Counted from the stretch's first letter, positions 1-64,000 are shown. The stretch is DNA of 64,000 nucleotides from Raillietiella orientalis (GCA_036172245.1 JAYWIR010000139.1:1-64000); one strand, 5' to 3'. Program-made: numbers and translations. The notes: generated by a model not told the origin, from the letters alone.

Positions 1-1375
1 TGAGGGTTCTGGCTGCAACGAGGCTGCCAGCTAATCCGCGGCTCGATCGAAGGCTACGTCATCGATGGTGGTGTCGATGAAGGACGCCGCCGCCGGCTCG
101 CTCCCCTTGCTGTTGACTGTGTCAACAGAGGGGTGGTCGTCGTTAGCGGCGAGTACTTTCCGGCAGCGGTCGGGAATACGCTCGACGACAACGCTGCGTT
201 CTTTAATTTGCTCGCTTGCCTGCTGTTTTTTCTGGCGGTACGCGAGCTTTTTCTCCATCCTCCTCTCCTTCTTTGATTTTTTGGCCGTAGCCACCCGCCA
301 CTCAGGCTCCTCGATTGTTTTCTCCACTTGTTCGGCGTTGTTCTCCGGGCTCTCGGGTGCGGCCTGGGCCTTGGGCGCGGGTGGCACAGCCTTCGCGGCA
401 GCTTTCGCCGCCAGTCTTTTCTGCAGAAGCCGGGCGCGTTTTTTAAGGTTTCTCTTGGAAACCACCCGCACTGCTGCTTTTGGGCACACCTCTCTCGTGT
501 GGCCCATTGTGCCGCATACTTGGCACTGCACATTGGGACACCTCTTTTTAAGGTGGCCCGACGTATTGCAGAAGCCACAGTATTTCGGCTTCCCCACATA
601 CCAGAGGTCGACGGTTTCGCCTTCGACCACCAGATTGTGGGGAAGAGTGCAGCCCTCCCGAACAATCACGCGCGCAGAAGTGAGGCTGTGTTGCGGCCTT
701 GTGTAGTCCTCGAAATGACAAACATTCGTCCACTGCGCGTGGACCGTTCCAAACTGTTCCAAAGCGGCGCGAACCTGTTCTTTGCGCATTCGCGCGGTCA
801 CGCCTAACAGGTGGACCACCAAGCTGCGGTCCGCCGTAGTGGAGAGAAGCCTGCGCATCCCCATCACAACGGGGGTTTTAAGCAGTCGTTGGGCCAGCTC
901 TGCATGTTTGCAGATGACCTCAACGTACTGACCCCCGCTGCGGATGGTCATAGCGCTGAGCTCCTCCTCTTTCACATCGAGAGCGCTCATGCCCTTCGAG
1001 AAGGCGCGCGCGCTCTCTAAAGAATATAAATTGCCTACCTTGTAGAACAATGAGGGGTTGTACCCCTTCTCTACATAGGCCGACAATTCCGCCGCGGCTG
1101 CAGGCGATGGCGCTGACACAACGGCGCTACACGCCCGCGCTGCAGCGGGGACCGATTCTGTGGGGGCGGATGCCTTCACCTCCATCGCCTCTGGGGGCGA
1201 CGTTGCCGCCGCCCCCTGGCTCTCCATCGCCTCTGAGCTCGGCGTTGCCGCTGCCCCCTGGCCATCCCTGGTGGTCGCGTCAGGCATCGCAGCCTGATCG
1301 AAAACCGAACCACACGACGCTTGCACTGGGGGAGAATTCCTGGCACCAGGAGCACCGAGGAAACAGGTCCACCCT
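1..1375 (-). mobile_element. Non-LTR retrotransposon family A, copy A0 (5' end and ORF1; runs off the window start), inserted antisense in the RT of C0
   Basis: The minus strand begins AGGGTGGACCTGTTTCC, similar to the 5' termini of the C and E copies. It abuts plus-strand RT codons HKAFDC at about 1382. Confidence 0.85.
31..1287 (-). pseudogene. A0 ORF1, gag-like nucleic-acid-binding protein (RRM-like region plus two CCHC zinc knuckles), premature TAG at 31-33
   Basis: Likely ATG at 1287 (MPDATT). Knuckles CGFCNTSGHLKKRC and CQVCGTMGHTREVC. After the TAG the frame reads LAASLQPEPS, matching EKLAASLQRDPS in A1 (about 28560-28600), so the stop is a nonsense mutation. Confidence 0.85.
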
Positions 1376-3585
1376 AGAGCGCACAAGGCGTTCGACTGCG
1401 TAAACCAGAAGCTGCTTTTGGAGCTTATGGAACGCCTTGGGTTCCCGGCGCAACTCCTGCTGTATTTGCGCGCGTGCTGGCGCCACGCGCTAACCTGCAT
1501 TACTTTCAGCGGCTGCCGCGTGTATGGTATTCCCGTTCGTAGGGGCATCCGACAGGGCGACAGCTTAAGCCCGTTGCTCTTCAGCATCTTCTTTGAGTTG
1601 GTGCTAAGAGCATACAGGCTGACGCTGTCTCACTTGCCAAGCTCCTGCCCGGGAACGCCTGCCGTGGCCGCCTACGCTGATGACCTGCTTCTTCTGCTCC
1701 CCATGTCCACCCCGGCGTCCAGTGTCGAGGATTTCTTCGACCTGATTCGTCGGGGAGCGGGCATGAGCGTGAACAGAGAGAAGAGCGTGGTCGTTCCTGT
1801 GGGTACGTCGTTGAAGGGGCAGTCCGACTGGATCCGCCTGGGGATCCCCAAGGGCGGGTACGTTAAGTACCTTGGCGTTCCGTTGGGCGCTTTCGGCGCA
1901 GCCGAAGCGTGGGCGGACTGTCTTCAGAAAGCAGAGTTGGCCATCAGCCCGTTCTTTAACGGCAAGTTTACCTTGCAGGAACGGGCGACTATTGGGAACA
2001 CCTTTGTGGCCCCCCTCCTCCGTCCCCTGTTTTTTGTTTTAAACCCCCCCTATGCGGCAAAACAACGGGCTAAACGCCTGCTCAGGAACGCTCTCTGGGG
2101 TCCGGCGAGATCCAGGTTCGGCCTTAAAGATTTGTTTGCTCCGCGTCGAGATGCTGGTTTGGGTATCTTGACAATGGAGCGAATCGAACTGCAGGTGCAG
2201 TTCGGACTGCTGGCACTGTGTGCCCAGCTATGGACATCCCCCTTGTGTGTGCCAGCCCGCATTCTCCTTCGCAGATGCGCCGGCAGCGGAGGATTTCTCT
2301 CGCTTTTGCAGGGCACTCAATACAGGAAGCGGGGTTTCGGGTTTCCATTGCGGCAGTTGACCGCACTTCTGGAAGCTCACTCGTGGATCTCCTGCCGCCC
2401 AATGAACTTTGAAGCTTGGTGGCAAGAGTCTGTTGAATCCTGGGCGGCGTTCCAAGGAATACGCTCTGAAGATCTTCGCCCCCTGCGCTAATTTTTTCTA
2501 CGATCCTTCGAAGAAGTACTGCAGGACGAGGTGAAGTTTCATACCTTGGCTGCCACGCCTCTTGCCCCAGCGCTGTCTGTCCTCAGAGCAGGAAACGACA
2601 ATTGCAAACTGGCGAGGCGGGAGGTTTCCTGCACGATAGCGGGAAAAACCAAACTCCTTGGTACCTGGAAGACGAGTGAGTTGGCGGACGCCGCCACTCC
2701 TCGTGTTACTGCAAAGCGTCTACTCCGGTGGGCAGAAGAACTTGCTGTCACCCCCGAAGAACTTGTAGTCCCTCAACAGTGTATTGACAGTTCGCTGCTC
2801 TTCCTTGCTTGGAAACAAGCCGTGCTGCTTTTTTTTTCACTGGGGTTTTCAGTGCAAAGAGCGTTGGCATCGTGACTCCAGGGGACTTGCGTCTGCGAAC
2901 TGCGTTCGCTGGGGATCGACGGTGTCGATTCCGCACCTACTTCTGGACTGCGGTGTCCTACAAGGACTGTGGCGTAGGCTGGCAACAGCACTAATGCACC
3001 CCGTGGACACCGCAAGAGACTTGCTGCGACGATTCTTCACGCCGAGCGGGCTGTCACTAATCGCAAGGATTGCAACCATCGGTTGCATACGCGCGATAGT
3101 TTCCGTCCGCCAGGCGTTGGTAATCAACGGACAGCACCAAGAGGTAATCAGCAAAGCATCCTTCTACATGGGAGCATCCGCTAGATGGCCTCATTTGACA
3201 GAGGAGACAAAAAGGAATCTCGCCGCAATACGCCGCCGGTTTACACACCCTTAAGGGCGGCCAACCCGGTGATCATTGCCCTACCCTCCATAAACTAATT
3301 TTGTATTTTCTTTTTACATCCGCGTCCCCATAGGCTTCGGAACATTTTAGGTGCTCATCGTGTAAATCCCCGTCAGTACGGAGCCTAACCAAAAACCCGT
3401 TACCCTTCCCTCCAGTTTTTGATCTTTGTTTGTTTCCCCTCATTCCTCCGACGCTGCGAGCGGTCTGTTTACCAGGCCTGCGAGCCGGTAATTTTTCTAT
3501 GTTCTCTGTCGTTCTCTTGGTTGGGGACATTGTCGCTGACCAGTTTATTATTATTATTAAACGCCCCGGCGTGACCGGGTGATAA
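1376..3585 (+). mobile_element. Family C copy C0: 3' half of ORF2 (RT, C-terminal zinc finger; frameshifted, stop at 3254) and 3' UTR
   Basis: Motifs RQGDSLSPLLF, YADD, KYLG and CVRWG..HLLLDC. Ends ATTAAACGCCCCGGCGTGACCGGGTGATAA. Near-identical in reverse to the 3' part of C1 (about 37075-39275). Confidence 0.9.
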
Positions 3586-3928
3586 ATTTCAATCTCCGTC
3601 TGCTAACAGGTGAGCCAGAAACACAAGAGAACGCGATGAACGAGTTGTGCGCCGCCATGCGTGCGCGCAACTTGTTCGCGAGTGAGAGAAGAATGGTCCG
3701 CAGCATCGACCACGTCTTTCTCGACGCTGACCTGTGTTCACGGGTCGGCAAACGGGGGAGGGTTGCGTCGACGTTGTCGGACCATTCCCGGTTAATTTTC
3801 GAGATGCGGCCTCGCGACAAAGGACCGCCATCCAGGGATTGGCGTCTGCCGGGGGACTGGACGCGACTCTCAGGTGCGAAGGAACACCTTCGCGAATACC
3901 TGAGAGGCGTCACGCTCCGGAATCTCCA
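3586..3928 (+). pseudogene. Family E copy E0: C-terminal fragment of the APE endonuclease, lying between the C0 and A1 insertions
   Basis: Translates FNLRLL...IDHVFLD...LSDH; near-identical to E1 at about 36740-37074. Confidence 0.85.
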
Positions 3929-4141
3929 TTGAAACCCGGGTGCGCCATGACGTTTATTCTCACGAAGAAACCTATACAATCTGTGACTGGACCAGTAGTC
4001 CAGCCACGCCCTGGAAAGATATAGCTTGCCGGGCTACCGGTGCGCAGACCGGCGCGGTCGAGTTCGGCTGCAGAAGGGAGGGGGAACGAAACAAATAGAA
4101 AACAAAAAATAAACAAAAATCAGGGAGGGAGCAGGAAGGGA

Positions 4142-7100
4142 TCACAGTCTGCTGGGAGGGTCCGTCATCCTCTGGAGGATGCCGGCAATCTGTTTCTGTC
4201 TGTGTGGGTCCAGATGAGGCCATCGCGTCGCCATCATGAGGAAACGGGCGGCATACACGTTGGCATTCCTTTCGCTGGATCCTCCCGTCGCTTTGCTACA
4301 TGCCACGACGATCCCGCGTAGGCAGCACAGGGCTGCAAGCGAGGCCGCTGGAGGCATTGCGTCACGGACGAAGAGGGGGCGCAAAGCGTCTCTGTGGTTG
4401 CCTCCGGGGATCCCCAGGGCTACGGCAAAGCGTTCCCACAAAGGACGGAGGGCAACACAATCCACTAACAGGTGGGGGAGGTTTTCCCTCTCCCCGCACC
4501 TGACACAATTAGGGTTGACACCCCCCCGCGTCCAGAGGTGTCGGCGGGCGTTGCAAGGAAGCCCCCAATACAACACCAGCAGTGCCGAATGTTGCCACTT
4601 CATGGGGAGGGTGCGCGAGTCCATGAGCACCGGGGGCCACTCGAGATGTTTCTCTGGAACATCCAGTAGCTCTTCCCAGCGCAAGAGTCCATTTGCGGGG
4701 GTCCTCGGGGTCGCAGCGTTGGTGAGCTGACCCGTTCTCCAATCCTTGATCTTCTTTGCCCTGTTGGCGATCTTGGCAGTAACCTCCCATTGTGCCGCGA
4801 CGTCGCTGCGCAGATGTTCCCGTAGGGTAGGCAGTATCGCAACAAGGGAGGTTCTTTGTGCCCACGCTCTCCTTCGAGGATTCTCGATGCTTTCTCGGAG
4901 CGTGCGGCGGGCATGCGGCCCGAACAGAGCTATTCGCTCGTGTTGCGGGCTCTGCTCCTGAATCATCGCCCACGTGCGGACGGTTTCCTCTAACCAGTTA
5001 GGACCGTTCGCATGGCGTACGAGGATCCGCGCCGAGTTGTTCTTCACGAGCTTGGCCGCCCTCCGAAGTTAAAGTCCGCAGTGGCAGATGGGGCTTCAGA
5101 GTTCAAAGTAGGACGAGAGTCCCGCATTGCCGGTGGCCCGCTCGACCAGGAGACCTGCACGGAGGCACCAAGGAGTGCACCAATTTTTTGCCATAAAGGC
5201 AAAAACTCGGAACTGGAGCTGTAGCTCCAGCCGCTCCAACGTCAGGAGGCCCAGACCACCATCCCGACGAGAAGCGCACAAGTCCGAAAGACCGACTCGG
5301 GGCCTCCCTCTGCCCCAAAGGCCGATCCTCAGAAGGTCCTTCGTCCTCTTCTTAGACTCCGCTGACGGGGGGAAAACAAAAAGCAAGGGGCGAAGGAGGG
5401 GGGCCGCAAACGCGTTCCACGCCGCGGCCCGTTCCTGCAGGTAGAACCTGCCGTCCTGGAACGGGCCGATCGCCGCCTGAGCCTTCTGAAGGCAGCCGGA
5501 CCACGCTTCCGCAGGGGAGTAGTCCCCCAACGGCACACCAAGGTACTTGAAGTACCTCACCGTGGGGATTCCCAAACGGACTTAGTCCTGCTGCCCTGCC
5601 CACGCCGCTCCGACTGTCATTACGGACGACTTCGCCCTGTTCATCGTCAGTCCTGTTCCCCGACTCAGCAGGTCGAAGAACTCCTCGACCGCCGCTGCCG
5701 GGGTGGACATAGGCAGCAGCAGCAGAAGGTCGTCCGCGTACGCCGAAACCGCAGGAGTACCGGGACATTCGCACAGCAGGTGCGCCAGAGTCTCCCTGTA
5801 TGCTCTCAGCACCAATTCGAAATAGGCGCTGAAGAGCAAGGGGCTGAGGCTGTCTCCTTGCCGTATGCCGCGTCGCACCGGTATACCTACACGGTGGATC
5901 CACTAAAAAAAACATTAATAAGCGCGTCGCGCCAGCTGGAGCGCAGGTAGGCCAGCAAAGAGGCCGGGAAGCCCAAGCGTTCCAGAAGCTCCAAAAGGAG
6001 ATTCTGGTCGACGCAATCGAATGCTTTATGCAAATCGACTGCGACCGCGAGGGCTCCTCTCCAATCCCGACCGTCCCGTCCCCCACCGACGGACGCACCG
6101 GAATTCCGGTTGCTTATTATGCTCCTTCCTTGTTGGAGCTCTAACCATGTGGAAGCGTGGAACAGGTTCGCCTCCATACTTCGCCCGGGAACAGCATACG
6201 TCTGTTCCGAGCTGATGAAGATGTTGGCGACCCGTCCCAGGCGCTCTGCCCACAGCTTGGCTAGCAACTTGGCGTCCGCATTCACTATTGTGATGGGACG
6301 CCAGATGTTCATGCTCCTAAGGTCTCCTCCCTTAGGGAGGATCCGCACCTTTGCTGAACGAAACGAGGTGGGAACGTCACCTGTTTCGCGGATCAGCAAG
6401 GTGAGCTGATGTACCAGAGGAGTAAGCTCGGCCGCGAAGGTTTGATAGAACTCCGCAGGAATGTCGTCCTCCCCTGGAGCCTTTCGCCTCTTGAGCTTTC
6501 CGATGGCTGAGATGATCTCGCCCATCGTAAAAGGCTCGTCGAGATTCCTTTTCTCCTCCTCCCCGATTCCGGGAGCACCTTCCGGAAGCAGGAGTCGTGA
6601 GACAGCCTGCTCCGGAAGCGCCCTGGCGTACAGGGAGGAGTAAATTTTCCTCACTATCCCGCGTTTCTGAGCGGGAACCGAGTGCTCCCGGCCTTGGTCG
6701 TCCAGCAAGCTGGCCGACCCGGATTGCCAGGCTTGCCTCTCGGCTCCCGCTCGATACTCTGCTAACCTGCGCATGTCGGGGGTTCTCGCGTAACGTCGGG
6801 CCTGAAGATAGCGCTTTTCGTTACGCGGCCCCTCCCCAAATCCCGCAGGTAGGCGATGCAGGGGGAACTGGTCGCAGAACTCCTGGACCGACCGCTTGAA
6901 GCGGTCCCAGTCCTGAAGTGTCTGCATCCTGAAGCTCCGAATAAACGCGCGGAGGTCCTCCGCCGCGTCGGAAAACTTCAGCCAGTCCCCTGGCAGACGC
7001 CACGCTGACAAGGGGGAGCCCTTGTCGCGCGGACGCACTTCGAACATGATCCGACCATGGTCCGACAGCTCGGATGGTACCTTGCCGCGCCTACCCACCC

Positions 7101-7575
7101 GAGAGCATAGGTGCTGATCAAGGTACGCGTGATCGATGTTGCTTTCCATGGCCGTGTCCCCGGCCAACAAGTTGCGCATGTTCATTTCTGCGCACAACTC
7201 GTTGACGCGGTCGTTCAGTGTATCCGGCGCACCTGAAAGCAGGCGCAGGTTGAAATCACCTACGATCAGGTGCGCTTTGCGAACTCCTGCATCGGTCAGC
7301 CAATCGTGTCTCAGGGCAAGGTAGAATTCCCTTCTTGCCTTCGCCCCCAACGCGTTGTTTCCGCTAGGAGCGTATAGGTTGGTGACGACCAGGTCGATAG
7401 AGTCGGTCCAGCTGAGAGTCAGCTGACCGACGCGACCTGCGTCATCGAACCGAACGTCCTTTATTGCAATCTCGATGGCTGGCCGAAACAGGAAGGCGAC
7501 ACCGCTTGATTTCGCGGTGCCGCAACGTCACAACAGCTGCCCACCCGAGATCCGTTCGATCTCCTGCGCTCGTAC
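4142..7575 (-). pseudogene. A1 ORF2 (APE-RT-zinc finger), broken by stops and frameshifts; its N-terminus lies at 28012-28175
   Basis: Motifs VGDFN, IDHAY, SDH, KAPGED, WRPITIVNADAK, QGDSLSP, YADD and CVRCGERENLPHLLVDC. Confidence 0.88.
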
Positions 7576-7687
7576 AGTGCAGACGTGTTTCCGCGTCTTT
7601 CCGCGCCAACGATCGGGCAACTTTGTGCCTGCGTTTTTGCTCGCACTTGTGTGTTCCTGTGCAATCTGCCAAGTAGCATAGTGCAAC

Positions 7688-8933
7688 ATGGCCAGTACAC
7701 AGGATAGTGTGGAAGAGCAAGCCACTGGATGCACTTCAGCTGCACTTGAAGTGGCCGCATCCTCCATAATGGTTTCCTCGCCCCCGGTGAGGAGTTACGC
7801 CGTCGTTACCTCCCAAAGACCAGGATCCTGCGATGCGGAGTTCCAGGCATATGTGTCATCAGGATACATGCCTGCACTCCGTTATAAGGTCAGTGGGCCA
7901 CTTAACGGGAGAATCGGTCCTGAGCTCAATGATGAGCTCGTCCGGATAGGCGTTCGCGAGGAGGAACTCCTTGCCATAATGCCTGCTGGCAGGATGGAAT
8001 ATACGAAGATTCGGTGCAAGAACGCAGCACTTGTGCAGCGCCTTCTCCGTACGCCGTTGACCATCAATGGCAAGGAAGTCCTACCTACGACGATTGACGA
8101 CTCTTTTGTCGTTCAATTGTGCGACATCGAACCGGAAATCTCCGACCGCGATGTCGTAAGTGTGCTGGCGAAGTTCGCCACCGTGCACGCTCTGTGGAGG
8201 AGGCCAAATCCTCTTAAGGATTTTCCCTCTGTCCACATTGGACAAGCCTCCGCGCGGATCACCGTCGCGAACAGGCGTGTTGTGCCTGAGCAGCTGCAGG
8301 TGAACGGCACGGTCGTTCACCTGTGGTTCATAGGCCAGACTCGCGCGTGCGAGCAGTGCGGCAAGGAGGGGCACCGAATTAAAGAGTGCCCCTCTCCAAG
8401 ATTCCGCTATTGCAAAGATTCCGGCCACGAAATCAAAAAGTGCCCGGTACTTGCAAGAAAAAGAGCCGCAGCGGAAATTCGTCGGGTTCAAGAGACCACT
8501 GCACGAAAAGCCGCAGCGGCAAATAAAAAACGTCGTCCGCAAAAACTCGAAAACAACCACGAGCGATCCGCGGATAAAAAGAAAGCATCCCCGCCCGCAA
8601 CGCCCCGAAAGGGGAAAGTCACGGCGGGTAAGCCAACTAAAAAGGGGCGCGAGGGTTTGACGCGTGCCGTGCCTTCCCTCTCTGCCGAACTCGCAGGCAC
8701 ATTTCCGAGCCTGGAACCAGGAAATCTCCGTAACACCCTGGAAGGAAAGGTAGGAAAACAGGAAGATCGCAACAGTGCGAAGACTTCTTGCCCCGTTCCA
8801 TTGTCCCTTCGGAGTTCCGGACAGCCCCACTGCAGCGAAGGCCCCACTGCAAAGGCTACGAAAGCCGTAAAAAGCAGCGTCGCGACGAGCAAAAGCACGC
8901 TGCATGCAGTCGCTTCATCGCCGAGTCGGAAGG
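7688..8933 (+). pseudogene. C2 ORF1, gag-like protein, interrupted by B1; continues at 25829-25950
   Basis: ATG at 7688. Knuckles CEQCGKEGHRIKEC and a degenerate FRYCKDSGHEIKKC. Homologous to C1 and C3 ORF1. The listed ORF beyond 8933 is read-through into the B1 3' UTR. Confidence 0.85.
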
Positions 8934-12586: not shown

Positions 12587-12599
12587 AAAAGGGGAAGAC

Positions 12600-14387: not shown

Positions 14388-14570
14388 CCTGGCAGCTGGT
14401 CTTGCTGCACGGGACCACTGCAGGTCTTTTGCTGCGATCTCCTCGCCGCTTCTTTTCTAGTTTCGTATGGAAAACTTCCCCTCTCCGGGCACACACGAGC
14501 ACAATTAACTGATTACTTTGTCAAGCGCACAATACTTTGAGCCGCGGAGCAAGTTCACCGACTCGGCAGG

Positions 14571-20185: not shown

Positions 20186-20202
20186 TCACATCAATCGGCA
20201 GG

Positions 20203-25812: not shown

Positions 25813-25950
25813 TCACCGACTCGGCAGGAGAGGTGCAATCTCCCGACTGTCAAGAAGGTGACTCCGTTGCCGTTTTTTAAAGGCGTAGCGAAAGCAACGC
25901 CCCCAGAGAACGCAGCGCAAATCCCGGAGGTTTCCGCAACTACTGTCGCG

Positions 25951-43534: not shown

Positions 43535-43690
43535 CCCCCTCCTCCATGGGTAACGGCGCATCGAGCGGGTCACCCTCAGGTAAGGTCGCGAATACCTGTT
43601 GGCCCTTCTCCATGGGGGCGAGCTGTTCAGGCTCGGCGACTGCAGGGAGGACTTCGCCCCTCTGATCACCCTTCTCCATGGGAGTGGCCG
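43535..43690 (-). repeat. Three degenerate units of about 66 bp encoding PMEKG/PMEEG in the E1 ORF1 tail
   Basis: CTCCATGGG recurs at about 43543, 43609 and 43675. Confidence 0.65.
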
Positions 43691-48221: not shown

Positions 48222-48961
48222 CGCCCCCAGCATTTTCTGTAGCAGCCTCGCGCGTTTCTTTAGGTTCCTCGCGGAAACCACGCTTACAGCGGATTGTGGG
48301 CACACTTCTCTCGAGTGACTTATTGTCTCTCATACCTGGCACTGTACGTTGGGGCACCTTTTTTTGAGGTGTTGCGATGTGTTGCAGAAGCCACAGTATT
48401 AGGGCTTCCCCACGTACCAGAGGTCGACGCTTTCTTTGCCGACCAGCAGTTTGTGGTGCAGGGTAGAGCTTTTTCGTGCGGTTACACGGGCAGCCGTGAG
48501 GCCGCGCTGAACTGTAGAATAGTCCTCGAAAGGTCTAGGCTTGGTCCATACTGCATGGTCCGTGCCTTCTTTTCCCAACGCGGCGCGTAATTGTTCTTTC
48601 CGCATCCGCGCGGTAACTCCTGAAAGGAGGACCACCATACTGTGGTCCGCCGTAATGGGAAGGAGCCTGCGTGTCCGCATCACCACTGGTGTTTTGTGCA
48701 GATGTTGGGCCTGATCTACGTGTTTGCAGATCACCTCTACGCATTGCCCCAGCTACGAATGGTTATCGCGCATAGCTACTCCTCTTTAATATCGAGAGCG
48801 CGCATCCCCTGCGAAAGGGCGCGCGCACTCTCAGAAAAATACAAATTTCCTACGTTGTAGAATAGCGATGGGGTATACTTCTCTTCTACATAGGCAGATA
48901 ATTCCGCCGCGGCTGCAGGCGATGGCGCCGACACGACGGCACTCCACGCCCGCGCTGCAGC
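48222..48961 (-). pseudogene. Family A copy A2: internal ORF1 fragment
   Basis: Collinear with A0 at about 410-1145 (ICKH..., VDLWYVGKP, RNLKKRARLLQK). Confidence 0.85.
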
Positions 48962-51900: not shown

Positions 51901-53426
51901 TTAAATCACCTGCGATCAAGTGCGCTTTACGAACAATTACTCTGGTCAGTCATTCGAATCCGAGGGCAAGGTAGAATTCTCTAATAGCCTTAGCCCTCAA
52001 CGCGTCGTTACTGCTAGGACCGTACAGGTTGGTGACGACCACGTCGATTGAGTCGGACCAGCTGAGAGTCAGCCGAACGACGCGACCGGCGTCATCAAAC
52101 CGTACGTCCTTTTTGCGGCCTCGATGGAAGGCCGGAGCAGGAAGGCGACACCTCTTAATTTCGCGGTGCTGCAGCGCCACAGCAGCCATCCACCCGAGAT
52201 CCGTTCCATCTGCTGCGTTCGCACAGTGCAGACGTTTTCGCGTCTCTCCGCGTCCGCGATCGAGCATCTTTGTGCGTGAGTTTTCGCTCGCAATTGTGTG
52301 TTTCATGGAAGTGGACGAAGCAGCGTTGTGCAGCATGGCCACTTCTGGAAATGGTGTGAAGGAGACAGCCGTTGAATTCGAATCAATTGAAATGGAAGCG
52401 GCTGCATCCTCCGTGACGGTTTCCTCGCCTTCAATGAGGAGCTACGCCGCTGTCACCTCCCAGAGAGCATGACCCTGCGCTGCGGAGTTTTAGGCTTATG
52501 TGGCATCCGGCTGCATGCTTGCACTCCGTTTTAATGTCAGTGGGCCCCTTAACGGGAGGATCGGGCGAGCTCAACGACGAGCTCTTCCGGATCGGGGTTC
52601 GGGAGGAGGAGCTTCTTGCCATCATGCCTGCAGGCAGGATGGAATATACGTAGATACTAGATAAGTGTGCTGGTAAAGTTCGCCACCGTGCACGCTCTGT
52701 GGAGGAGGCCCAATCCTCTGAAGGATTTCCCCTCTGTCCACATTGGACAAGCCTCCGCGCAGATCACCGTCGTGAACAGGCGTGTTGTGCCCGAGAAGCT
52801 GCAGGTGAAAGGCACGGTCGTTCACCTGTGGTTTATAGAACAGAATCGCGCGTGCGAGCTGTGCGGCAAGGAGGGACACCGAAAGAAGGAATGTTCCACC
52901 CCGAAATTCCGCTGCTGCAAAGAAACCGGGCACGAAATAAAAAAGTGCATGGTCCTTGCAATGAAAAAAGTAGCAGCGGAAGTTCGTCGCGTTCAAGATA
53001 CCAACGCACGAAAGGCCGCTGCCCCCAAGAAAAAACAGTGTCCGCGGAGTCTTGGCAAAAGACCCAAGCAATACGCTGCTATACAAAACGCGTCCCCGCC
53101 CGCAACGCCCCAAAAGGGAGAAATCGCGGCGAAGAAGCCATTTCAAAAGGGGCGCGAGGGCGCGACGCGTGCCGTGCCCGCTCTCGCTGCCGTACTCGGA
53201 AGCAATTCTCCAAGCCAGGAACCAAGAAATTTCCGAAGACCCTCAGTAGGAAAGGTAGGAGAGCAGGAAGATCGCCACCGGGCGAATACTTCCAGCTCTA
53301 ACCCGCTGTCCCTTCGGAAATCGGCAAAGTCCCAATCCTACGCAGGGGCCTCTGCGTAGGATAGTCGCCAGCGGCGCGCCGTGCGAAATCACTCTGCAGA
53401 CAGTCGCCCCTTCACCGACTCGGCAA

Positions 53427-56400
53427 TTTTCCCTAAGTCCCACAAGGAATGGGTTGAATTTATTTCCCATTTTTTAAAACACATTCATTCTACAATCACA
53501 TTCATACAACATACCCACTTTACATCACTCTGAATTTCCTGAGGATATTACAAGTTCTGCTTTCAGGTTCGGTTTCCACATGTTTGTTCCCGGGCGTCGT
53601 CTTCAATCCTCTTCAGGATGAATCGGTAGGTCCAGGCAAGGATTCGCCCACAATTCCTCATGTCGATCTCCTTCTTGATGAGTCCTTAAAGGATCTCTAT
53701 CATAGGTGCGGCTCTCCTGGCTTTCCTCATCTTCCACCACCGCACAAGTATGGCGGTGATGAAGAGGCTTCCTCACCATGGGATTGTAACAGGGAACATT
53801 ACCATCTCCCTGAAACATCCCGGCGAGTATCTCCATTGTGGAGCTGGTGGAGAGTCCAATGATCCTTTTCAGGATCAGCCAGTCATGCAGCAGTGTGGGA
53901 CACGTCAAGACGTGAAGTCTCGTGTCGTCGTCTCCACATGCTGCGCAGTCTCGGTCTTCCCGTCTTCCTGTGATGTGCTGCAATCGGGACCCACTCTGGA
54001 TTCCTCCGTGATAAAACATCAGGAGGTCATCCTGGGTGCCCTGCGGAAGGTCACTCCTCCAGAGCGTCGTGCCGATCGCTAACAGGTTGATCCGGTCACT
54101 CCCGTAGCGACCGGCGGCTCCTTGTAAGGCACTAATGTATCGATCGTCTTCTTTGATGAGTCTTCGGAGGTTTATTTTGGTCACCCTGGACTACGCGAGG
54201 TCGTTGTGGTTGGTCCACACCTCGCGGGTCATGTGGTTGAACCTTCGTAACATCATCTCTATAAACCTAAGTATACGAGTGTGGTGTGGGTAGCCTCCTC
54301 TTCTCCACTGCTGGATTCGAAGCAGGGTAACTCTGGACCGCCTGTAGATCCAGCTTCTTGTGTCCGAGGGAACCGGAAGCATCCAAGGCATCACCACGAT
54401 AGACTCCTCCTTCTAGAGTTCCCTGCTTTGCGGTACAATCTTGATTTTGTGCTTTCGCACCAGTCGTTGCTTCCTCGTCCAGGTTGGGTCGATTTTTTTC
54501 CATTCGCCTGCTCGGCCTAGCAGCGCAGTCATCAGACCTTTCGAGTTGTTCAACAACAACGCGTAGACCCTGTGCGCCGCATAAGGACAGTCATCCCAGT
54601 GAGTGGCAATGTCCAGGAAGTGTCGCGTATCCATGATTTCTATGGAGTGTTCAAGCGACTTCATCCCGGAACCGCCTTCTTCCCTGGGACGACACAGGGG
54701 TTTGAGCCGTACTCTTGGTCGGTAATGGCCCCACAGTGTTTTGCGTTGCAGCTTTTCGAACTCCCTCGTGGTTTCCTTGTTCATCCTCCCGAAGGCCGCT
54801 CCGAAGAGTACCTTTGGAAGGAGTACTACGTTCCACAGGTTGGCCCTTCGCTTCATCCCAAAGTCCAGTCAAGTGTATTTTGCTGCCTCCTTGACCGTTT
54901 TCCCCAGGATTTCCGTCCACAGTAGCTTCGACACGGAGTCGTGGGCTGTGTGGACTCATAGGTACTTGGCCGTGTGTACCGTACGGAATCTGGTTTTCGT
55001 GAGGGCGGAGAGATCCTGTATTCCGACGGGCAAAAGCTGGCTGTTCTGGGCATTGATCTTCAAGCCCAGTCCATCTTTCATAAGGCTCTCCACATCCAGG
55101 AACGTTTGTTGATCCCTCTCTCCTCTTATGAAGAAGAGGAGATCGTCGGAGTAGGATAGATGGGTGAGCTTCTGGTCGTCTACGTTCACTCCGTTCAAAC
55201 GTCCGATCTTCTCGACGAAAGAAGAGAGCGCCTCCATTTAGATAACGAACAGCATCGGACTTAGCGAGTCGGCCTGCCGAACTCCTCGTCCCATCCGAAT
55301 GACTGCCGTTTCCATTCCATTGATTTTAATCCGGAAGTGTTGATTCCGTAGGATCATTTGCACGACGAAGCTGAAGTATTCTGGAAGTCTTAGCTTTTCC
55401 AAAATCTTCAGCAGCATCCCGTGGTCGATGGTGTGGAAGGCTTTCTTTATGTCTGTGAACGCAAGCACCAGGTTCTCGCCGACGTATCGGCTAAGTCCCA
55501 CGATAGCTTGAGCGCACTTGACATTGTCCAGCATGTGGCTCCAGGGTACCGCACACGTCTGAACAGGAGATATCAGCCTCGACATATCTTTGCCTAAACG
55601 GTTGGCCCAGATCTTTGCCAACCACTTGGCATCCGAGTTAAGGATCAAGATTGGCCTCCATTGGCCTATCCTGGATAGGTCGTCTCCTTTCGGCAACAAT
55701 CTCGTCCTGCTCTCGTTGGAGGACTCCGGCAGTCGTCCTTCTTGTCGGATGCAGAGGGTCAACTGGTGCAATAAACGCAGGTAGGAGTGCAGGTACCTCT
55801 GATAATGAGAGATGGGGACATCATCAGGGCCTGCTGCCACGTCCTTGCGTAATTGACCGAACGCAGTCTTCACCTCTTCTTCGGTAAAATGCTCCTCCAG
55901 TCTCTTCCGCTGGAGGTCGTCAAGCTTCTTTTCAAGATAGCCCAGGAAGGTGTTTGGCGTAGCCAGATACAGTTGTTCGCGTCGAAAGCGTTCCGTATAA
56001 TGCCTTTCGAAGACATCTACGATATCTTCAGACGTGTGTCGACTTTGATTACCGTACTGGATGCAGAAGATATCTGTTGCCAGATTTCTCTTCTCCAGCA
56101 CGCCGACTTCCCCTTTTACATTATGGAAGACGTACCGTCTCTCGTACTCCTCGAAGTACTTGGAGAGTGAGCGATCTTGGATGTTCAGCTCACGGTATGC
56201 CTCCTGCCTCAAGCGCCTATCCCTGAATTGCATATTTGCAAACAGGTATATCCTGTGTTTCACGCTGTCCCAGTGGGCGACTTTTCTGATTTTTGTGGTC
56301 TTCAGAATCGTTTTCAGGACCTCCTAATGTCCAATGTGTCTCGAACCAGGCAAGCATGCTGATGAGCGCCGCCCTGGTGCCTTGCCTCCGCCGAGGATTC

Positions 56401-59074
56401 TCCGTTTTTAGGAAAAACCGCACCAACGGGTGATCGGACAGAGTGGTCAATGTGTCTCGAAAATCCTGAATGCGATTCCCTAGTTCGGTGCTGTGAAGGA
56501 CGTGATCGATCGGCTTGTGACTTGCTGTTCGCCACACCAGTCAGAACTCGTCCGACAGCCACCGAAACGCCTTCTTCCTGAGGCGTCCTGGAATCTTGTG
56601 TGTTCGTCTAGGATATTAAGATCGCCAGCAACGATCACGACGTCCTTGGACGCGACCTTCTCCCGGAGTGCTGCATACAGTGCCTCCGCACATCGATGTT
56701 TGTACCTGTGTGGCTTGTACACGTTTACCCAGGAAAGGTGAACGTGAGGGGTCCAGGCCAGTCATACGCCGATTATACGTCCCTGCAAGCGACAGAAGAT
56801 TTTCAGAATGGTAGGAGCCAGTTGGTTCTTGACCAAGACCTCCACACCCTGCGTGTTTCGTTCTCCTTCGCTGACGAGCATCTGCTCATTAAAACGTCGT
56901 TCCATTTGCTGGATGATTTGGACACCCAACGTGTGGGTCTCCTGCAGGCACACGATGTCTTGCCGATGTCTTGTTGTGCGATGATCCGCACAATCTTCTT
57001 TCTCTTCCTCTTGTCGACTAACCCATTTACGTTCCAGGAGGCGATGTTGATGTTCCTGGCGGTCGACAGGTATTAGGTAATAAAGGGGAAGACAGACTTT
57101 TTGGCCTTCCTGAGCTTCTTCTGTCTGGGAGAGCGTGCTTTTCCAGACGATGAAGAAGGAGCGGGTTTTGCAGCTAGCAGCGTTATTCTCCGTCCCGGTG
57201 AGCTCGGTGAATTCAGCCTCCTCCGTAGAGTGTTCTGCTCGCGCGATAAGTTTCCTAGGTATATCCTCTATCGCCACCTTTGCGCAGAAGTTCGCCTTAA
57301 TGTCGAGAAGCTGTTCCTTTAGTCTCTCGCGCTCGGTAACTTCCACCACCTTATTCACCGTCTCCTGTGCGTTGCAGATCTTCTGCAGGATTTGCTTTTG
57401 CTTGGGCCCGCTTTGCACCTCGATCACTTCTTACGCCAGTTTAGCCAGCTCTTCGGTGGACTGCAGGGCCTCCTAAGACAATGGAGTGGCTTCTTTTTCC
57501 ACCTTTGCTTCTTCCAGTGCTGTCTCCATTTTCTAGCCTTCCGCTGCTCTTTCTGGGGTAAGAGAGGCTTTCTGCTCCTTGATGAGCATCTTTTTCTTTC
57601 CCTTTTTACCGACTTCAATAAGACCGTTCGCCGATACCGGCAAGGCTTCCTTAGTCTTCTTCGGCCTTCCTGCCAACTTTTGAGGCCCTTCCGCCTCTTT
57701 TATATTCCTGTCTCTCACGGGAGAGAGTCCTCTGATCCCTCTACAAATGGCGAATTGAGGGCATCTCCATTTACCGTGCCCATGCGTCTTGAAGAAGGAA
57801 CAAACCTCCGGCTGCGGCAGTTTTGGACTTGTTGTCCTATCTTGCCGCAGCGGTAGGATCGAGATGTTGAGCAAGCGCCTGCCCTGTGGCCAAACTGCTT
57901 GCATCCAATGCAAAATATTGGCGGTTGCCGATAACGCACTTTCACACAATGTGATGGCTCATCAATGACTGCTATCCCAGGGATCACCGCGCCTTCCTTT
58001 AATTTTATGTTGGCGATCATGTCGCCAGAAAAGATTTTTCCTGAGAAGTTCTCGAACTCGAGGTAGAGAACTTCCCCAAACTTCTCCAAGTATTTCCACA
58101 CCGTTAGTTGGAGTGTGTAGATGGATATGCTATTTGAAAACACGGTCGTGTATGGCATCTTGCCAACGCCACAAACCATCCTTACTTGAATATTGATCTT
58201 CTTCTGGATCAATCCTTCCCTAATGTATTCACAGTCCGCGAAGACCGTGAACCCGTTGTTGCTGGGAATGATTGCGTGGTTACGATCAAAATCTATGTCT
58301 GTTCTGTCTAGAGACAGATATATCTCCCTGATATTGTTGAACTTTATCAATCCAGTCTTAAAAATAGTAGGCTTCACCTCTGGCCATAACTGGACGATAG
58401 GCCGATCTACCTTTTTGACTTTCCCTCTTAGACGTTTGCCGAATTTTCTTAGCGGATGCACACTGACCTTCCCCGCCGCCACCGATGCGTTCGAAAACGG
58501 CTGCACCTCCTCAGCCGAGCAAGATGGCGTCGCATCTTGCGCTCCCTGCACAGTGTGGACGCGCGCTGGTCCCGCCTGGGACGCCGCCGCGAGCGCAACC
58601 TCGACGTTGCCGCCACCGCTGCTGCGGGCGCAACCCTTGGCATCGCCGCCGCAGGCATGTCCGTTGCCTCCGCGGGCGCGATCCTCGTCGTCAACGCCAC
58701 AGGTACGACCTTCACCGTCGCCGCCGAAGACGCGATCCTTGGCATCGCCGCCACCGGCGCAGCGAAGCCCGCCGTGGGCGCGATCCTCGGCATCGCCGTT
58801 GCCATACGTTACCTCCATCTGCAAGGGGACGTCGGCCTCTTCTCTCCTGCTAATGCCTGCATCCTTGCAGCTAAAACTGCCGCTGAGGAAGTTTGAAGGT
58901 CTTCCGCTGTGATCTCCTCGGCGCTTCTTTTGTAGTTGTATGAGCAGATCCTACGCAGCACACTCTTGTCCACACTCACTTTCTTCTGGAAACTTTTTTT
59001 CTCCGGGCACACACGATCACAATTAACTAATCAACTGTCGTCGTGCGCGCTATACACTGAACCTTGAAGCCAGT
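53427..59074 (-). mobile_element. Family B copy B4, full-length, divergent subfamily, both ORFs broken
   Basis: Collinear with B1 but has many substitutions and a different 3' UTR interior. Flanked by TCACCGACTCGGCAA (53412-53426) and TTACCGAATCGTCAA (59075-59089). Confidence 0.9.
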
Positions 59075-59747
59075 TTACCGAATCGTCAACAAAGGAGCAA
59101 TCTTCCGACTTCCAAAAAGGCGACTGCGCTACCTCCTTTTCAAGGCGTGGCGAAAGCTACGCATTTAGATACGGTAGCGAAAACTCCGAAGGTTTCCGAG
59201 ACGAAAGTCGCGGAAGCTTCCGGAAATCGTAACGGCAAGTGGGAGATTGTCGAGAGGAGAAAAGAAAAATCTCACAGGAAGGCTTCGCAACCTCCATCTG
59301 TTAGCTGTTTTAAGGCAAACAACAGCCGCGTGAAGAAGAAAACCCGCGCGGAGGGTTCTTCTGCCCTGGAAAAAGCCAGCGCTGTCAACGCGTGCAATTT
59401 CGCCTCTATGACCGCCGAGCAAACGATTCCGGTGCGATCGGACGGATGCAAGCGCACGCCAATCGTGCGAGCATCAGATTCCGTAAAGGAGTCCTATAAC
59501 GGCGCTCAACGACGTGTTACTGGCACGGGATCGAGAATTTGCAGGGCTGACGCCGTGAGGCGTGATACACACTCCGCGGAACGGCGAGTGCTCTCCCCGG
59601 GACCCGTAGGTTCCGCACTCGGGGAGAAGCACCGATTACGCGCAGCACGGTGGAGACCGGTGGCAACCGCTCCCTCCATCCCTTCGTACTGTCTGCTGCC
59701 CGCTCGCCGGGAGAGGCGAGCACCACGGCCTCGCTATCCCAGCCGTG

Positions 59748-62700
59748 ATGAGGGCGATCGCGTCTTCTCGTCGTGTTGCCGTGGCATGCTGCAACCTCAA
59801 CGGTCTCCAACACGACAAGAAGAGGCGACTTGTGGCTAACGCTCTGCGCGACTTATACTTGACGCTCCTGCACGAGATTCACAGCATCTCCAAAGAGCAG
59901 GCTGCCAAAATCGAACTGCGCGCGGCGGAAGGTTACATTATAGGTGCGGCGTCGCACCAACGTGCGGCATCGCTTTCCTCGAACGAGGAACTTTGGCGGA
60001 AGCGGTGCACGGCGTTCGCTTCGACACGGAAGGCCGAGTTGGACAGCATGTACTTAAGTGGTCCGACTCGATCGACCTTGTCGTAACGAACGTTTTCGCG
60101 CATTGGGGTGCTGAACGATATGCCGAAAGGACTGAGTTCTTCGGTACCGTTTAGAGCCAGTGGTTTTCTCGTGATCACTCTACTATGGCGCACTTCATTG
60201 CGGGGGACTTTAACGTGCACCTGCTGACCCAGAAAAGTGCACACAAAAGGGAAAAGTTCCTAGTAGAAAAGATGTTCGCTACCGTGCACACGTGCAACTT
60301 GTTCGCTAACAACCCTGTTATAGCAACATCACCGGACCATGTATTTCTCGATGAACACTTGCTCTCTCGAGTGGGTCGGAGAGGTCGCATGCCGTCCGTG
60401 CTTTCAGACCACAACAGGCTCGAGTTCGAGCTGCTCCCGCCAGACACGGAGCGTCCGAATTGAGTTCGATGCCGGCAGACTAACTTAGTCACCCGGAGGA
60501 GGCGGAGCGTCCTCGCCAGTACCTCCGCGGCTTCGCCATAAGTGAGCTCGCGGACTGGGACGATCTGAAAAGAGCGGCTCGAGAGTTTTCCTGCCGGTTT
60601 CCCTTGCAACAGCTTCCGCGCGGCTTCGAAGAGGGTGTAGCCAACAGCAGAGATTCTCTGCAGGCCCGCTCCTACTTCAGGCGCGCGGACGTTGGTCGAT
60701 TATCCGAGTACAAGGCCACGGCCGAGCGCCAGGTCTGGCAGACAGGGGCGACACTTCTGCTCGACGACCAGGACTGTGAACGTTCGGCTCCAGCCAACGT
60801 GCGACGGATAGACAGGTGCTATTAATCTTCTCTGTATGAAGAGGCACCGACGGAACGAAGTCTCTCCGAGCTGATTTTCCCGATTGATGCACCTGTTGTA
60901 GACGAGAAGGAACGCGCGCGTCTCCATGAGCCCTTCACGGCAGAGGAACTTTCTCCGGCCATCTCGGGACTCAAGAGACGAGAAGCGCCAGGTGAGGATG
61001 GACTCCTCGCGTAATTCTTTCAGTGTTTTGCGGCGGAGCTCATCCCCCTGGTGCTCCAACTCTCGTCGCTGATGCGAGACTCGGGCGATGTCCCCGCCTC
61101 GTTTCGCTCAGCGAAGGTGCGTCTACTGCCGAAAGGCGGAGATTTGCGCCAACTGAACAACTGGCGTCCGATCACATTAGTGAATTCGGACGTCAAGTTG
61201 TTCTCGAAACTTCGGGAGGCGCAAATGGGGAAAATCGCGGAGTCTGTGGTAAGTCCGGAGCAGACGTACGCTGTTCCTGGGCGGTCCATGGACGCGAATC
61301 TCTTGTTTATCCGCACATGGCTGCAATTGCAGCATCGTGTGGTGGTGGATCGTTGTGCGGAAGCGACGCCGTCGGTCTCTCTCCGACGGAGGCGCGGGAC
61401 GCAAAGGGAGACACCGGGAGCCTTGGCGGTTGCAGTCGATCTGCACAAAGCTTACGATTGCGTGAAATAAAAGGTTCTTCTTTAGCTTTTGGAACGTCTT
61501 CGTCTTCCGGCATCCCAGTTGGCGTACTTGCGCTCCTGCTGGTGCCACGCGATAACATCCATTGTTTTCAGTGGCTGTCGCGTGTACGGCGTTTTGGATA
61601 CGCGAGGAATTAGGCAGAATGATAGCTTGAGCCCGCATCACTTCAGCATGTATTTTGAATTGGTGCTGGAGGCTTACATGCTGACGCTAGCCAACCTGCC
61701 GAGCTCCTGTCCAGGTACGCCGGCCGTTGCCGCCTATGCAAACGACCAGCTGCTCCTGTTGCCCATGTCCACCCCGGCAGCGTCGCTTGAAGATTTCTTT
61801 GAGTTTATCCGTCGCGGTGCTAGCGTGAGCGTCAATAGGAGCAAGTGCATGGTTGTTTTGGTTGGAGCGACGTGGGAGGGGCAGTCCGACTGGATCCGCC
61901 TGGGGATCCCCACCGGCAGGTACCTAAGGTACCTTGGCGTGCCGTTGGGCGATTTCTGCATCTCAGAGGCGTGGTCGGACTGCCTTCGGAAGGCAGAGCG
62001 TGCACTTGACCAGTTCTCAGGATGCGAGTTCGTCTTGCCGGAACGAGCCTGCATCTGGAACACCTTCGTTGCCCCCCTCCTCCGCCCCCTGTTTTTTGTT
62101 TGTCCACCCCCCCAGGAAGTCAAAGTCTGGGCGCAGCGCCTTCTACGCAAAGCGTTGTGGGGCGCTGCAAGATCCCGTGTTAGACTTAAAGACTTGGTGG
62201 CGCCTCGTCAGGATGCAGGCTTGGGCATCCTCGACTTAAACAGCATCGAACTCAAGGTGCAGTTTCGCATGCTGCGGCTCTGTGCCAAGCTGTGGTGGAC
62301 GCCGTGGTGCTTACCTGCACGCCTTATACTGAGGCGCTGCACGGGAAGCGAGGGACTGCTTTGGTTGCTACCCCACTTTCGGTACACCAGAATAGGGTTT
62401 GGCTTCCCGCTGAGGCAGCTGTCCTCACTGCTGGAAGCCCAAAGCTGGATCTCCTGCCGCCCCATGAACATTAATGCATGGCGGCAGGAATCTTTTTCAT
62501 TGTGGGCAGCTTCCGAAGGAACGTGCCCGAAAGATCTTTGGCGCCTGCGACTTCTCCTCAGTCATCCAATGGACGAAGTCATGCAGGACAGGCAGATGTC
62601 GGATCGTCTGGCCGCCACACCACTCGTCGCAGCTCTGTCTGCCCTCAGAGCAAGCAACGAGAGTTGCCTACCGGCGAAATGGGAGTTTTCCTGCTCAATT

Positions 62701-63314
62701 AAGGGAGTCAGTATGCTCCTCGGCTGCTGGACGACAAAGGAGCTGGTGGAAACTGCCACGCTTCGTAATCGGGCGAAGGGCCTGCTTCGGTGGAGTGAAC
62801 ATTTAAGTGTACCCCCCGAAGAGATAGTGGTCTCCCTCGTTGGTTTAGACAGTTTCTGTACCCCTTAAAGTGGAAACAAGATGTGCTGCTCTTTCTACAC
62901 TGTAGCTTTTACCGTAATAGGCAGCAAAGCATCGTTTCCGGGGGATCTGCGGTGCCAAACTGTTTGAGGTATGGAGAGTTCGAGTCTTCTCCGCACCTCT
63001 TGCTGGACTGCGGTGACCCTTGTGAACTGTGGTTAAGGCTGATTGCAGCCATCCTGGCGCGAAGAGGCACTGCCATTGATGTGCTGCGTCGCTTCCTCAG
63101 GAAAAATAGATTTTCAGTAGGCGCGATTGTCGCATCCATGTGTTCCATTCGCGCCATCGTGAAGGTCCGCTACGCCCTGGAGTTGTCAGCGCAGCAAAGG
63201 GAGGTTCACCGGTTCGCAGCAGAATCCATGGAAAAGGCAGCAAAGTGGCCTCATCATCGTGACGTGCTCAAAGAGAACATTGCCGGCATCCACGGCCGGT
63301 TTACAAACTTTTAA
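59748..63314 (+). pseudogene. C3 ORF2 (APE-RT-zinc finger), fragmented; YADD decayed to YAND
   Basis: Motifs CCNLNG, AGDFN, SDH, WRPITLVNSDVK, DLHKAYD, QNDSLSP and RYLG. Confidence 0.87.
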
Positions 63315-64000
63315 GAACATATTAATTCGGTGATCACTACGTCCTGAATTCAACCCTTACCCCTCACCCGCTCGCTCTGCTAAACTGCCGGTGCCATTAC
63401 TTTCATCCCGGTGCGAACCATAGCGATCCCAAAGACCCTTGTCCCGGCGTCCCCCATTGATTTTTTTTTTTTTTGTTTTTGTTTGTTTGTGTTGCTACTT
63501 CCCCCACACCATTCTGTGTTATTCTGGCCTGCGTGCCAGGAATTTTCTCTTCATCAACCTTCAGTCGTCGGTTCGAAGCATCGTTCTTAGCTGGTTTATT
63601 TTATATAACTGTTTTTGTTTATATTATATGATACAAACGTCCCGACGTGACCGAGTGAGAAATCTCCGTTGCTTGGTGTGAAAAGATCACGCGGATCTCT
63701 TCAGTAGCACCGGAGGGAAGAGGCGATTTCCGGCATTAAGGCTGGGAACGTGGCGTTGCAGCACCTGTCAAGTGACAGGCGGGAGGGACGAGTATGGGGA
63801 CCGCAGCCATCTCAGGCACTTGACTCACCTGGGGCACAGACTCTAACCTTTCCCTCCCTCCGTCGTCGCAGCGTGGGGTCACCTCTGGAGGAGAGTCCCA
63901 GGAGTTTCCCACTTTCTTCGCACGTTCGCTTCTCTCGATTATCTCTCCCTTTTCCACGGACGGGATAATTTTGCGGGTAGCCTTCTTCGTACGACTGGTC

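Follow-up and report, generated by a model that had tools for sequence, protein, structure and literature searches.

Recurrent insertion sites among nested L1-like LINE families in a 64-kb stretch of Raillietiella orientalis DNA

We analyzed 64,000 bp of DNA from Raillietiella orientalis (GCA_036172245.1, JAYWIR010000139.1:1-64000), referred to below as the window, which appears to be built from long interspersed nuclear elements (LINEs) inserted into one another. We think it likely that the window is a gene-free island of related, L1-like LINE families with an apurinic-like endonuclease (APE), and that at least three of these families are sequence specific for a short site in another family.

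Insertion sites shared between nests

The elements fall into several families (Table 1; element names are ours). Family B (5.6 kb, minus strand) has four full-length copies: a head-to-tail run of B1 to B3 (8933-25811) and, farther on, B4 (53427-59073). Family C is on the plus strand, C2 spanning 7585-28011 overall and C3 52234-63661, and shows ∼70% nucleotide identity to family A, whose members are A-full and the truncated A0. The D-types comprise D1, D2, G, H2 (in two parts), I2, F, the fragments E0 and E1 of the first open reading frame (ORF1), and a short piece, G'.

B was found in C at one 16-bp site (TTCACCGACTCGGCAG), located in the last ∼50 codons of C ORF1, in antisense orientation and with a 16-bp target-site duplication (TSD), at two loci (B1 to B3 in C2 and B4 in C3). 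Searching the window for this target gave four hits, with 0.83 expected by chance: exact matches at 14554 and 25812, one with a single mismatch at 53411, and a fourth (5656-5671, two mismatches) inside D1, away from any junction. Variant copies are found at 8914, 20185, and 59074. Once rejoined across B1 to B3, C2 ORF1 runs on for 50 codons to a stop, and this end is homologous to the right flank in C3.

C, in turn, sits twice in the D1/D2 subfamily, immediately past the QEIHV codons of the endonuclease coding region, again antisense and with a TSD of 24 to 26 bp (copies at 7559-7584 and 28012-28035 for C2 and at 52208-52233 and 63662-63685 for C3). The search for the C target yielded only two hits (7559 and 52208), with 0 expected, the second copies being those at 28012 and 63662. 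Removal of C2 and one TSD from D1 restores an endonuclease frame colinear with that of G. The third case concerns the I-types, which enter an E-type ORF1 antisense at CGCCGCCAGYCTT with a 13-bp TSD: H2 is inserted in E1, and I2 lies head to tail on the upstream duplicate. I2 and H2 thus share one 13-bp site and have different 5' truncation points, and the same site is uninterrupted in E0 (406-418). Independent copies therefore occupy the same nucleotide in a fixed orientation, as target-specific LINEs do, in small numbers: two loci for B (one with three copies), two loci for C, and two copies plus one empty site for the I-types.

Two further insertions were seen once each. A-full splits G within the GDFN codons of the endonuclease, with an 8-bp TSD, and G splits H2, with a TSD of 11 to 12 bp. 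D-type guests enter D-type hosts at nearby, nonidentical points; of the four D-type 3' flanks that could be read, three start with CGCC. G split H2 at D1 coordinate ∼6835-6844, and the 5' end of F falls within ∼10 bp of that point (31684/31685 and 45284/45285), which hints at a recurrent breakpoint just after the D-type endonuclease domain. The adjacency of E0 to D and of E1 to D2 was considered as a third shared junction and rejected, as D2 is 3' truncated and A0 and G' intervene in the first nest.

These results bear on the first-pass annotation, whose labels we matched to our own because it came without coordinates, and which described families nested reciprocally in one another. Much of its nesting order stands, with TSDs in each case: C2 in A1 (our C2 in D1), B1-3 in C2, C3 in A3 (C3 in D2), B4 in C3, C1 in E1 (A-full in G, 8-bp TSD), E1 in H2 (G in H2), and H2 in A2 (H2 in the E-type ORF1, 13-bp TSD). 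The nesting is indeed four levels deep, with A-full in G in H2 in E1. Its placement of A0 in C0 fails, since the segment at 3586-3928, the probable basis of that placement, follows the 3' end of a C-like copy with the A-full/G junction and is carried-over host flank rather than a guest, and we could not confirm C0 in E0, A1 in E0, or G in A1, D1 being flanked by the 3586-3928 piece (G') on its 3' side and by F on its 5' side. A and C had also been said to occur inside each other; C/A-types were found only as guests of D-type hosts. Within the window, A/C-type sequence nowhere borders a D-type piece at both ends, and B is never interrupted by another element. The nesting order is one-way, not reciprocal: D-types act as hosts (and as guests of other D-types), A and C enter D-types, and B enters C. 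The proposal that several cotargeting families, rather than one self-targeting family, built the cluster gains mutual targeting at nucleotide resolution, at the same site, with TSDs and in independent events, and loses its reciprocity. As a whole, the earlier description is partly confirmed and mostly holds.

Independent insertions or a copied nest

Against site-specific insertion stands the fact that the two large nests are colinear beyond their junctions (E-type ORF1 fragment, D, C, and B in the same order and orientation), as a segmental duplication would give. A single nest, E[D[C[B]]], might have formed by ordinary nonspecific insertion and later been copied as DNA or retro-copied whole, the shared junctions being inherited. 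Order, orientation, and junction positions are alike over ∼15 kb (405-1152 and 4307-14469 versus 48221-58942; 25947-28059 versus 61603-63708), and copying at the DNA level or by read-through does occur in the window: A0 together with 343 bp of its host G (1382-3928) recurs relative to 36734-39275 at 93 to 95% identity (94.6% for A0/A-full and 92.9% for G'/G), without codon bias. The 3' end of this piece abuts that of D1, tail to tail. The 3586-3928 segment is host flank co-copied either by 3' transduction (read-through) or at the DNA level.

We then looked at codon positions, given that substitutions accumulate neutrally in dead copies but concentrate at synonymous sites in lineages that were active while diverging. 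A third-position excess was found at P < 0.005 in 8 of 12 copy comparisons (P values from 5e-15 to 0.003). The ratio of nonsynonymous to synonymous divergence (dN/dS) was 0.31 for B2/B4 ORF2, 0.21 for B1/B4 ORF1, 0.44 for B1/B3 ORF2, 0.44 and 0.49 for C2/C3, 0.40 and 0.43 for D1/D2, and 0.20 for E0/E1. The frame of the reverse transcriptase (RT) was used in place of the ORF at 5352-6113 (dN/dS, 1.21), which is not that frame. B1/B2 (1.14; P = 0.87) and A0/A-full (0.72; P = 0.31) served as neutral controls from the same locus, and their lack of a third-position excess indicates that the local mutation process does not favor third positions. D is broken by C, and C is broken by B, so that the selection must have acted before each nesting and not after it; the two nests would then hold D, C, and B elements that inserted separately on the same nucleotide. 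Divergence is also unequal among the layers (identity is 89% in the ORF2 part of C and 84% in D, against ∼78% in B and 77% in E0/E1), and a copied nest leaves unexplained how I2 and H2 came to share one site with different truncation points. We consider a copied nest unlikely.

The arrays give further information on how the copies arose. Between B1 and B2, and again between B2 and B3, there is just a single copy of the target. The three B elements are mosaics, in which 500-bp blocks at 98% identity alternate with 87% blocks in different pairs: in the B-sense alignment, columns 500 to 1000 are 98.3% identical for B1/B3 and 86.9% for B1/B2, and columns 2500 to 3000 are 98.4% identical for B1/B2 and 86.6% for B1/B3, B3 being nearer to B4 there. 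This suggests recombinant source elements or gene conversion. The mosaic pattern speaks against the B array having formed by simple tandem duplication and agrees with a regenerated target that was entered repeatedly, possibly with later conversion. Likewise, the I2-H2 pair cannot have arisen by unequal exchange, because the two elements have different truncation points.

The tandem B array or the repeated nests could also be in part an assembly artifact, with repeats collapsed or misjoined. The region is wholly repetitive. A search for public runs gave one, X1 (share 0.19), and none of RNA, and among the 763 X1 contigs placed on 44001-64000, none spans the stretch, including the 22 that are at least 99% alike; 537 are less than 90% alike, and the set derives mostly from related copies or organisms. 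The copies themselves are 2 to 22% diverged and carry copy-specific indels, their junctions bear matched TSDs, removal of the guests restores reading frames, and the mosaic divergence of B1 to B3 is unlike misjoining of identical repeats, all of which makes an artifact extremely improbable.

The remaining points that weigh against fixed target sites are the following. All host-guest evidence comes from one window, with two loci per rule, and for A in G from one locus plus its co-copied duplicate. An empty B or C site, as an intact copy of C or of the D1/D2 type would show, was not found in the window. D-type insertion points cluster loosely, those of D1 and G being ∼85 bp apart. D2 lacks ∼380 bp at its 3' end and stops at 48965, where the E0/E1 homology ends (1152 in E0), which could reflect a deletion spanning a D-in-E junction or another insertion, and the order given here for E0, A0, G', D1, and F in the left nest is tentative. 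Four of the 12 codon tests were not significant, namely the two controls, B2/B3 (0.55; P = 0.12), and the C-terminal part of D1/D2 (0.49; P = 0.15), and gene conversion by copies still active might leave a signal like that of purifying selection. Finally, no copies were found outside the window, a scan of metagenome contigs with the B ORF2 protein giving 54 pattern matches and 0 relatives.

Proposed sequence-directed targeting and known LINE clusters

We propose that the island grew by repeated target-primed reverse transcription into earlier copies. Each insertion duplicates its target and so regenerates a site open to further hits, which accounts for the head-to-tail arrays with one target copy between the units (B1-B2-B3 and I2-H2). 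The outcome is a one-way hierarchy in which D-types are hit by A/C-types and also by other D-types, and A/C-types by B. To judge from the sequences, specificity may reside in the endonuclease of each family, possibly aided by the 3' end. Such sequence-directed targeting might by itself gather all the families in one place, and being sufficient for clustering, it would not need a centromere to be invoked.

Insertion might instead be steered by chromatin, through centromeric or heterochromatic marks as proposed for the algal Zepp and ZeppL elements, the coincident sites being due to chance or local hot spots. Each chromosome carries its Zepp/ZeppL cluster at a single putative centromere and nowhere else, and CENH3 is bound at ZeppL regions (PMC3446292, PMC8226300, 10.1101/2025.03.28.645958), and in the window, D-types do land at several different places in other D-types. 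In contrast, identical nucleotide positions with matching TSDs recur in three guest families; for a ∼6-kb element, the probability that a second insertion repeats both the base and the orientation is ∼1 in 10^4, and such a repeat was seen at three levels; and the single target copy between array units points to recleavage of a sequence. Steering by chromatin alone thus appears very unlikely to us.

Sequence-specific insertion invites comparison with two kinds of known LINEs. Zepp (Chlorella/Coccomyxa) and ZeppL (Chlamydomonas) form gene-free clusters of tens of kilobases of nested LINEs that insert into earlier copies (PMC3446292, PMC8226300), one per chromosome, at putative or CENH3-bound centromeres (PMC3446292, PMC8226300, 10.1101/2025.03.28.645958; also the v6 genome preprint). 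By their descriptions, each such cluster consists essentially of one self-targeting family, and its arrays are mostly 3' ends owing to 5' truncation. The window resembles them as a LINE-only cluster with nested insertion into existing copies, and also in its L1-like ORF2 architecture, and differs in having at least four families (B; A/C; the D1/D2 subfamily; G/I-types) with distinct fixed target sites in one another, and B, C, A-full, and G copies that are full length rather than 3' ends. Tx1-clade LINEs (Tx1L in Tx1D, Tx1-Mar in Mariner-N4_AMi, Keno, Kibi, Koshi) are APE-type elements found at defined positions and in a fixed orientation in other repeats, including transposons; the targets named are DNA transposons, long terminal repeat (LTR) elements, snRNA genes, or microsatellites (PMC4494074). 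The window shares their site-specific APE-type insertion, and some of its nearest database relatives carry zf-RVT, which is subthreshold in D1 and C2. Unlike those of the Tx1 clade, its targets are autonomous sibling LINEs that belong to the same clade and are entered in their coding regions, and the targeting is layered three deep and one-way. By analogy, the window would work like Tx1-type site-specific LINEs and yield Zepp-like clusters, the likeness being in the mode of insertion and in the form of the cluster.

Other parallels are more limited. R1/R2 and the telomeric LINE arrays (SART/TRAS, HeT-A/TART) also insert at precise sites, are for the most part full length, and line up head to tail on a target that is regenerated or that extends; unlike in the window, they target ribosomal DNA or telomeric repeats, not LINEs, and the R2 endonuclease is of a different type. 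Chlorella centromeres, validated by chromatin immunoprecipitation of CENH3, contain several transposable element families, including L1 LINEs, in a mix of Copia, L1, and RTE-X; no nucleotide-level mutual targeting is mentioned in the accessible part of that report, and the window holds one LINE clade only (PMC11005252). Our literature searches gave no description of site-specific LINE-in-LINE cascades, which is not proof of their absence.

A broader reading is possible, and we offer it tentatively and with some doubt. The window may record a cascade of "hyperparasitic" LINEs, sibling L1-like families in which each endonuclease has been retargeted to an 8- to 26-bp coding sequence of another (the endonuclease N terminus, the catalytic GDFN codons, or the ORF1 tail), so that guests inactivate their hosts, regenerate their own target, and together assemble into islands without genes, possibly acting as centromeres. 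On this reading, recognition of DNA sequence could suffice to account for centromere-like clusters made of LINEs, and the family set would be a natural panel of long-site APE endonucleases. How LINEs find algal centromere clusters is an open question, for which fixed sites in sibling elements would provide a testable, purely sequence-based mechanism of island building and renewal. Guests landing in host endonuclease or ORF1 coding sequence look like an arms race among LINEs. Putative APE-type endonucleases for 13- to 26-bp sites would also be of interest for targeted retroelement insertion, a field represented by R2-based work.

Element structure, relatives, and content of the window

We then analyzed the proteins of the elements. 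Exo_endo_phos and RVT_1 domains occur together in one ORF at 14705-18388 and at 10193-12751 and as separate pieces in other copies, ORF2 having the endonuclease followed by the RT, as in APE-type LINEs. B2 ORF2 has the motifs QETH, GDLN, SDH, and YADD, and its best solved relative in a comparison with the Protein Data Bank is human LINE-1 ORF2p (E value of 2.6e-52, colinear), with R2 at 4e-25. The architecture is L1-like (ORF2 nearest to L1 ORF2p, CCHC in ORF1, and a C-terminal Cys/His motif), with the zinc motifs scoring below the cutoff: zf-CCHC in ORF1 just so, at 20.1 to 20.4 versus 20.8 bits, and zf-RVT, in D1 and C2, at 19.6 and 13.9 versus 27.5 bits. TSDs of 8 to 26 bp for A, B, C, G, and H2 and the lack of LTRs agree with target-primed reverse transcription. 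Truncated copies (A0, D1, F, I2, and H2, all at the 5' end) are a minority, all four B copies, both C copies, A-full, and G being complete to the 5' end. In A-full, one open frame of 988 amino acids (aa) (39768-42734, minus strand) covers the ORF1-like region and the endonuclease (APE, aa 600 to 807), and ORF1 and ORF2 of family A may be fused or read through. C2 lacks ∼2.4 kb present in C3 (the endonuclease and the first half of the RT; 25953 versus 59215-61603), apparently through an internal deletion immediately downstream of where B entered.

A/C, the D-types, and F share a 3'-terminal motif, AATAAA(C/A)G..CCGGGT..AA, with a short GC palindrome (e.g., CCCGGCGTGACCGGG) between AATAAA(C/A)G and the final ..AA. 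The 3' end of B is distinct and has a different hairpin, CCCCACCCCTTGTGGGACTTGGGGAAAC. Both are possible RT recognition hairpins. No poly(A) or microsatellite tails were found on the window elements, a difference from Zepp, which was reportedly described originally with a poly(A) tail. The segment at 33315-33733 was considered as a family A tail and rejected, being D-type endonuclease sequence (H2). Tandem repeats of 23 bp (three units) lie in the F 3' untranslated region (UTR) at 28730-28798, and repeats of 27, 36, 42, and 48 bp lie in the Ala/Pro-rich N-terminal coding part of ORF1s (14086-14297, 19717-19894, 25428-25518, and 1180-1262).

To place the families, RT cores were stitched for 14 elements, 9 of which entered a tree (those of B1, A0, C2, D1, and I2, being partial or redundant, were omitted) with 34 database proteins; this 43-row tree came from a quick search with no bootstraps and no curated clade references. 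All nine window rows formed one clade (Shimodaira-Hasegawa-like approximate likelihood ratio test [SH-aLRT], 99), with B as sister to (D2, F, (A-full, C3), (G, H2)). This clade groups with PF03372 (Exo_endo_phos) proteins from plants, a lizard, and Closterium, some with zf-RVT and some lacking it, and is separate from an RNase-H/Exo_endo_phos_2 group (SH-aLRT, 98). A phmmer search of 1.84 billion representatives gave nearest outside proteins that are 27 to 39% identical at best; three of the ten best matches are named, from Closterium, a turtle, and Tanacetum, and no algal Zepp protein was among the named matches of the protein searches. Word-indexed protein searches and the ESM Atlas returned distant L1-like proteins only, and the A/C 3'-end pattern had 0 matches in metagenome contigs. 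From these comparisons, the families appear to be one clade of L1-like architecture, very remote from the public proteins searched.

The window has 56% G+C. In a translated search with 14 LINE ORF pieces from the window, ORF1/ORF2 translations cover 56,771 of 64,000 bases (88.7%), and the remaining 19 gaps of at least 100 bp are 3' UTR, 5' UTR, or ORF1-ORF2 spacer, all inside elements. Self-comparison matched 57,634 of the 64,000 bases, 13 of the 20 longest stop-to-stop ORFs matched RVT_1, Exo_endo_phos, or zf-CCHC (the other 7 had no match), and no tRNA genes or Rfam families were found across the window. A gap-free split gives 17 element pieces with zero remainder. Within the limits of similarity searching, every base is thus assignable to non-LTR retrotransposons with APE and RT, in agreement with the earlier claim of no non-LINE DNA.

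Table 1. Elements, junctions, and terminal motifs along the window
Feature	Position	Strand	Evidence or remark
E0: D-type LINE 5' part (ORF1, CCHC knuckles), runs off left edge	1..1381	-	tblastn to B ORF1; 76.6% identical to 48221-48967; weak zf-CCHC
Empty I-type target site CGCCGCCAGTCTT	406-418		within E0
A0: family A copy, 5' truncated, RT to 3' end	1382..3585	+	94.6% identical to 37075-39275; RVT_1; 3' end ...CCGGGTGATAA
G': D-type endonuclease-region fragment joined to A0, junction as A-full/G	3586..3928	+	92.9% identical to 36734-37074
D1 3' part: rest of APE, RT, C-terminal zinc motif, 3' UTR	3929..7584	-	TSD copy 7559-7584; Pfam APE and RT; subthreshold zf-RVT; 82.8% identical to D2
C2 5' part: 5' UTR and ORF1 with CCHC	7585..8932	+	B target copy 8914-8932
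B1: full length; ORF1 intact (618 aa, 12600-14456), ORF2 cut to 852 aa	8933..14553	-	
Single 16-bp target copy TTCACCGACTCGGCAG between B1 and B2	14554..14569	.	exact match
B2: full length; ORF2 intact (1227 aa, 14705-18388), ORF1 broken	14570..20184	-	APE and RT catalytic motifs
Degenerate target copy (20185-20201), then B3 (20202-25811)	20185..25811	-	B3 full length but decayed
C2 3' part: ORF1 end, RT second half to 3' end	25812..28011	+	target copy 25812-25827
D1 5' part: APE N terminus, upstream spacer	28012..28682	-	TSD copy 28012-28035; D1 5' truncated
F: D-type element, 5' truncated	28683..31684	-	23-bp x3 repeat in 3' UTR
I2: 5'-truncated I-type copy (31685-33243), then target copy CGCCGCCAGCCTT (33244-33256)	31685..33256	+	91.6% identical to 46667-48234
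H2 5' part: APE region	33257..33734	+	ends in TSD GGGTATTCGGCG (33723-33734)
G 3' part: from GDFN onward (RT, C terminus, 3' UTR)	33735..37074	-	TSD copy 37067-37074
A-full: 5.9-kb family A element in GDFN codons of G endonuclease	37075..42975	-	orientation as G
G 5' part: ORF1, spacer, APE N terminus up to GDFN	42976..45284	-	TSD copy 42976-42983
H2 3' part (= I): RT to 3' end	45285..48221	+	TSD copy 45285-45295; 3' end ...CCGGGTGGCAT
E1: D-type ORF1 fragment, host of H2	48222..48964	-	filled target CGCCCCCAGCATT at 48222-48234
D2 3' part: ∼380 bp of 3' end missing versus D1	48965..52233	-	TSD copy 52208-52233
C3 5' part (ORF1)	52234..53426	+	B target copy 53411-53426
B4: full length, decayed, diverged subfamily	53427..59073	-	∼78% nucleotide identity to B1 to B3
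C3 3' part: ORF1 end, ORF2, 3' end	59074..63661	+	target copy 59074-59090; 3' end ...CCGAGTGAGAA
D2 5' part: APE N-terminal region, off right edge	63662..64000	-	TSD copy 63662-63685
Shared 3' motif sites	27985-28011, 63635-63661, 3560-3585, 3929-3960, 33735-33760, 48195-48221, 28683-28720		

Three minor observations concern run X1. A 595-bp contig joins C (53134-53235) to B (53588-53715) at similar spacing, and a joint from 52833 to 59737 might represent C lacking B; neither is strong enough to serve as evidence. Depth rises to 369 at 48003-48669, versus 4 to 90 elsewhere, with many loose ends at a T-rich tract (48020-48062), and this spike is probably due to low-complexity cross-mapping.

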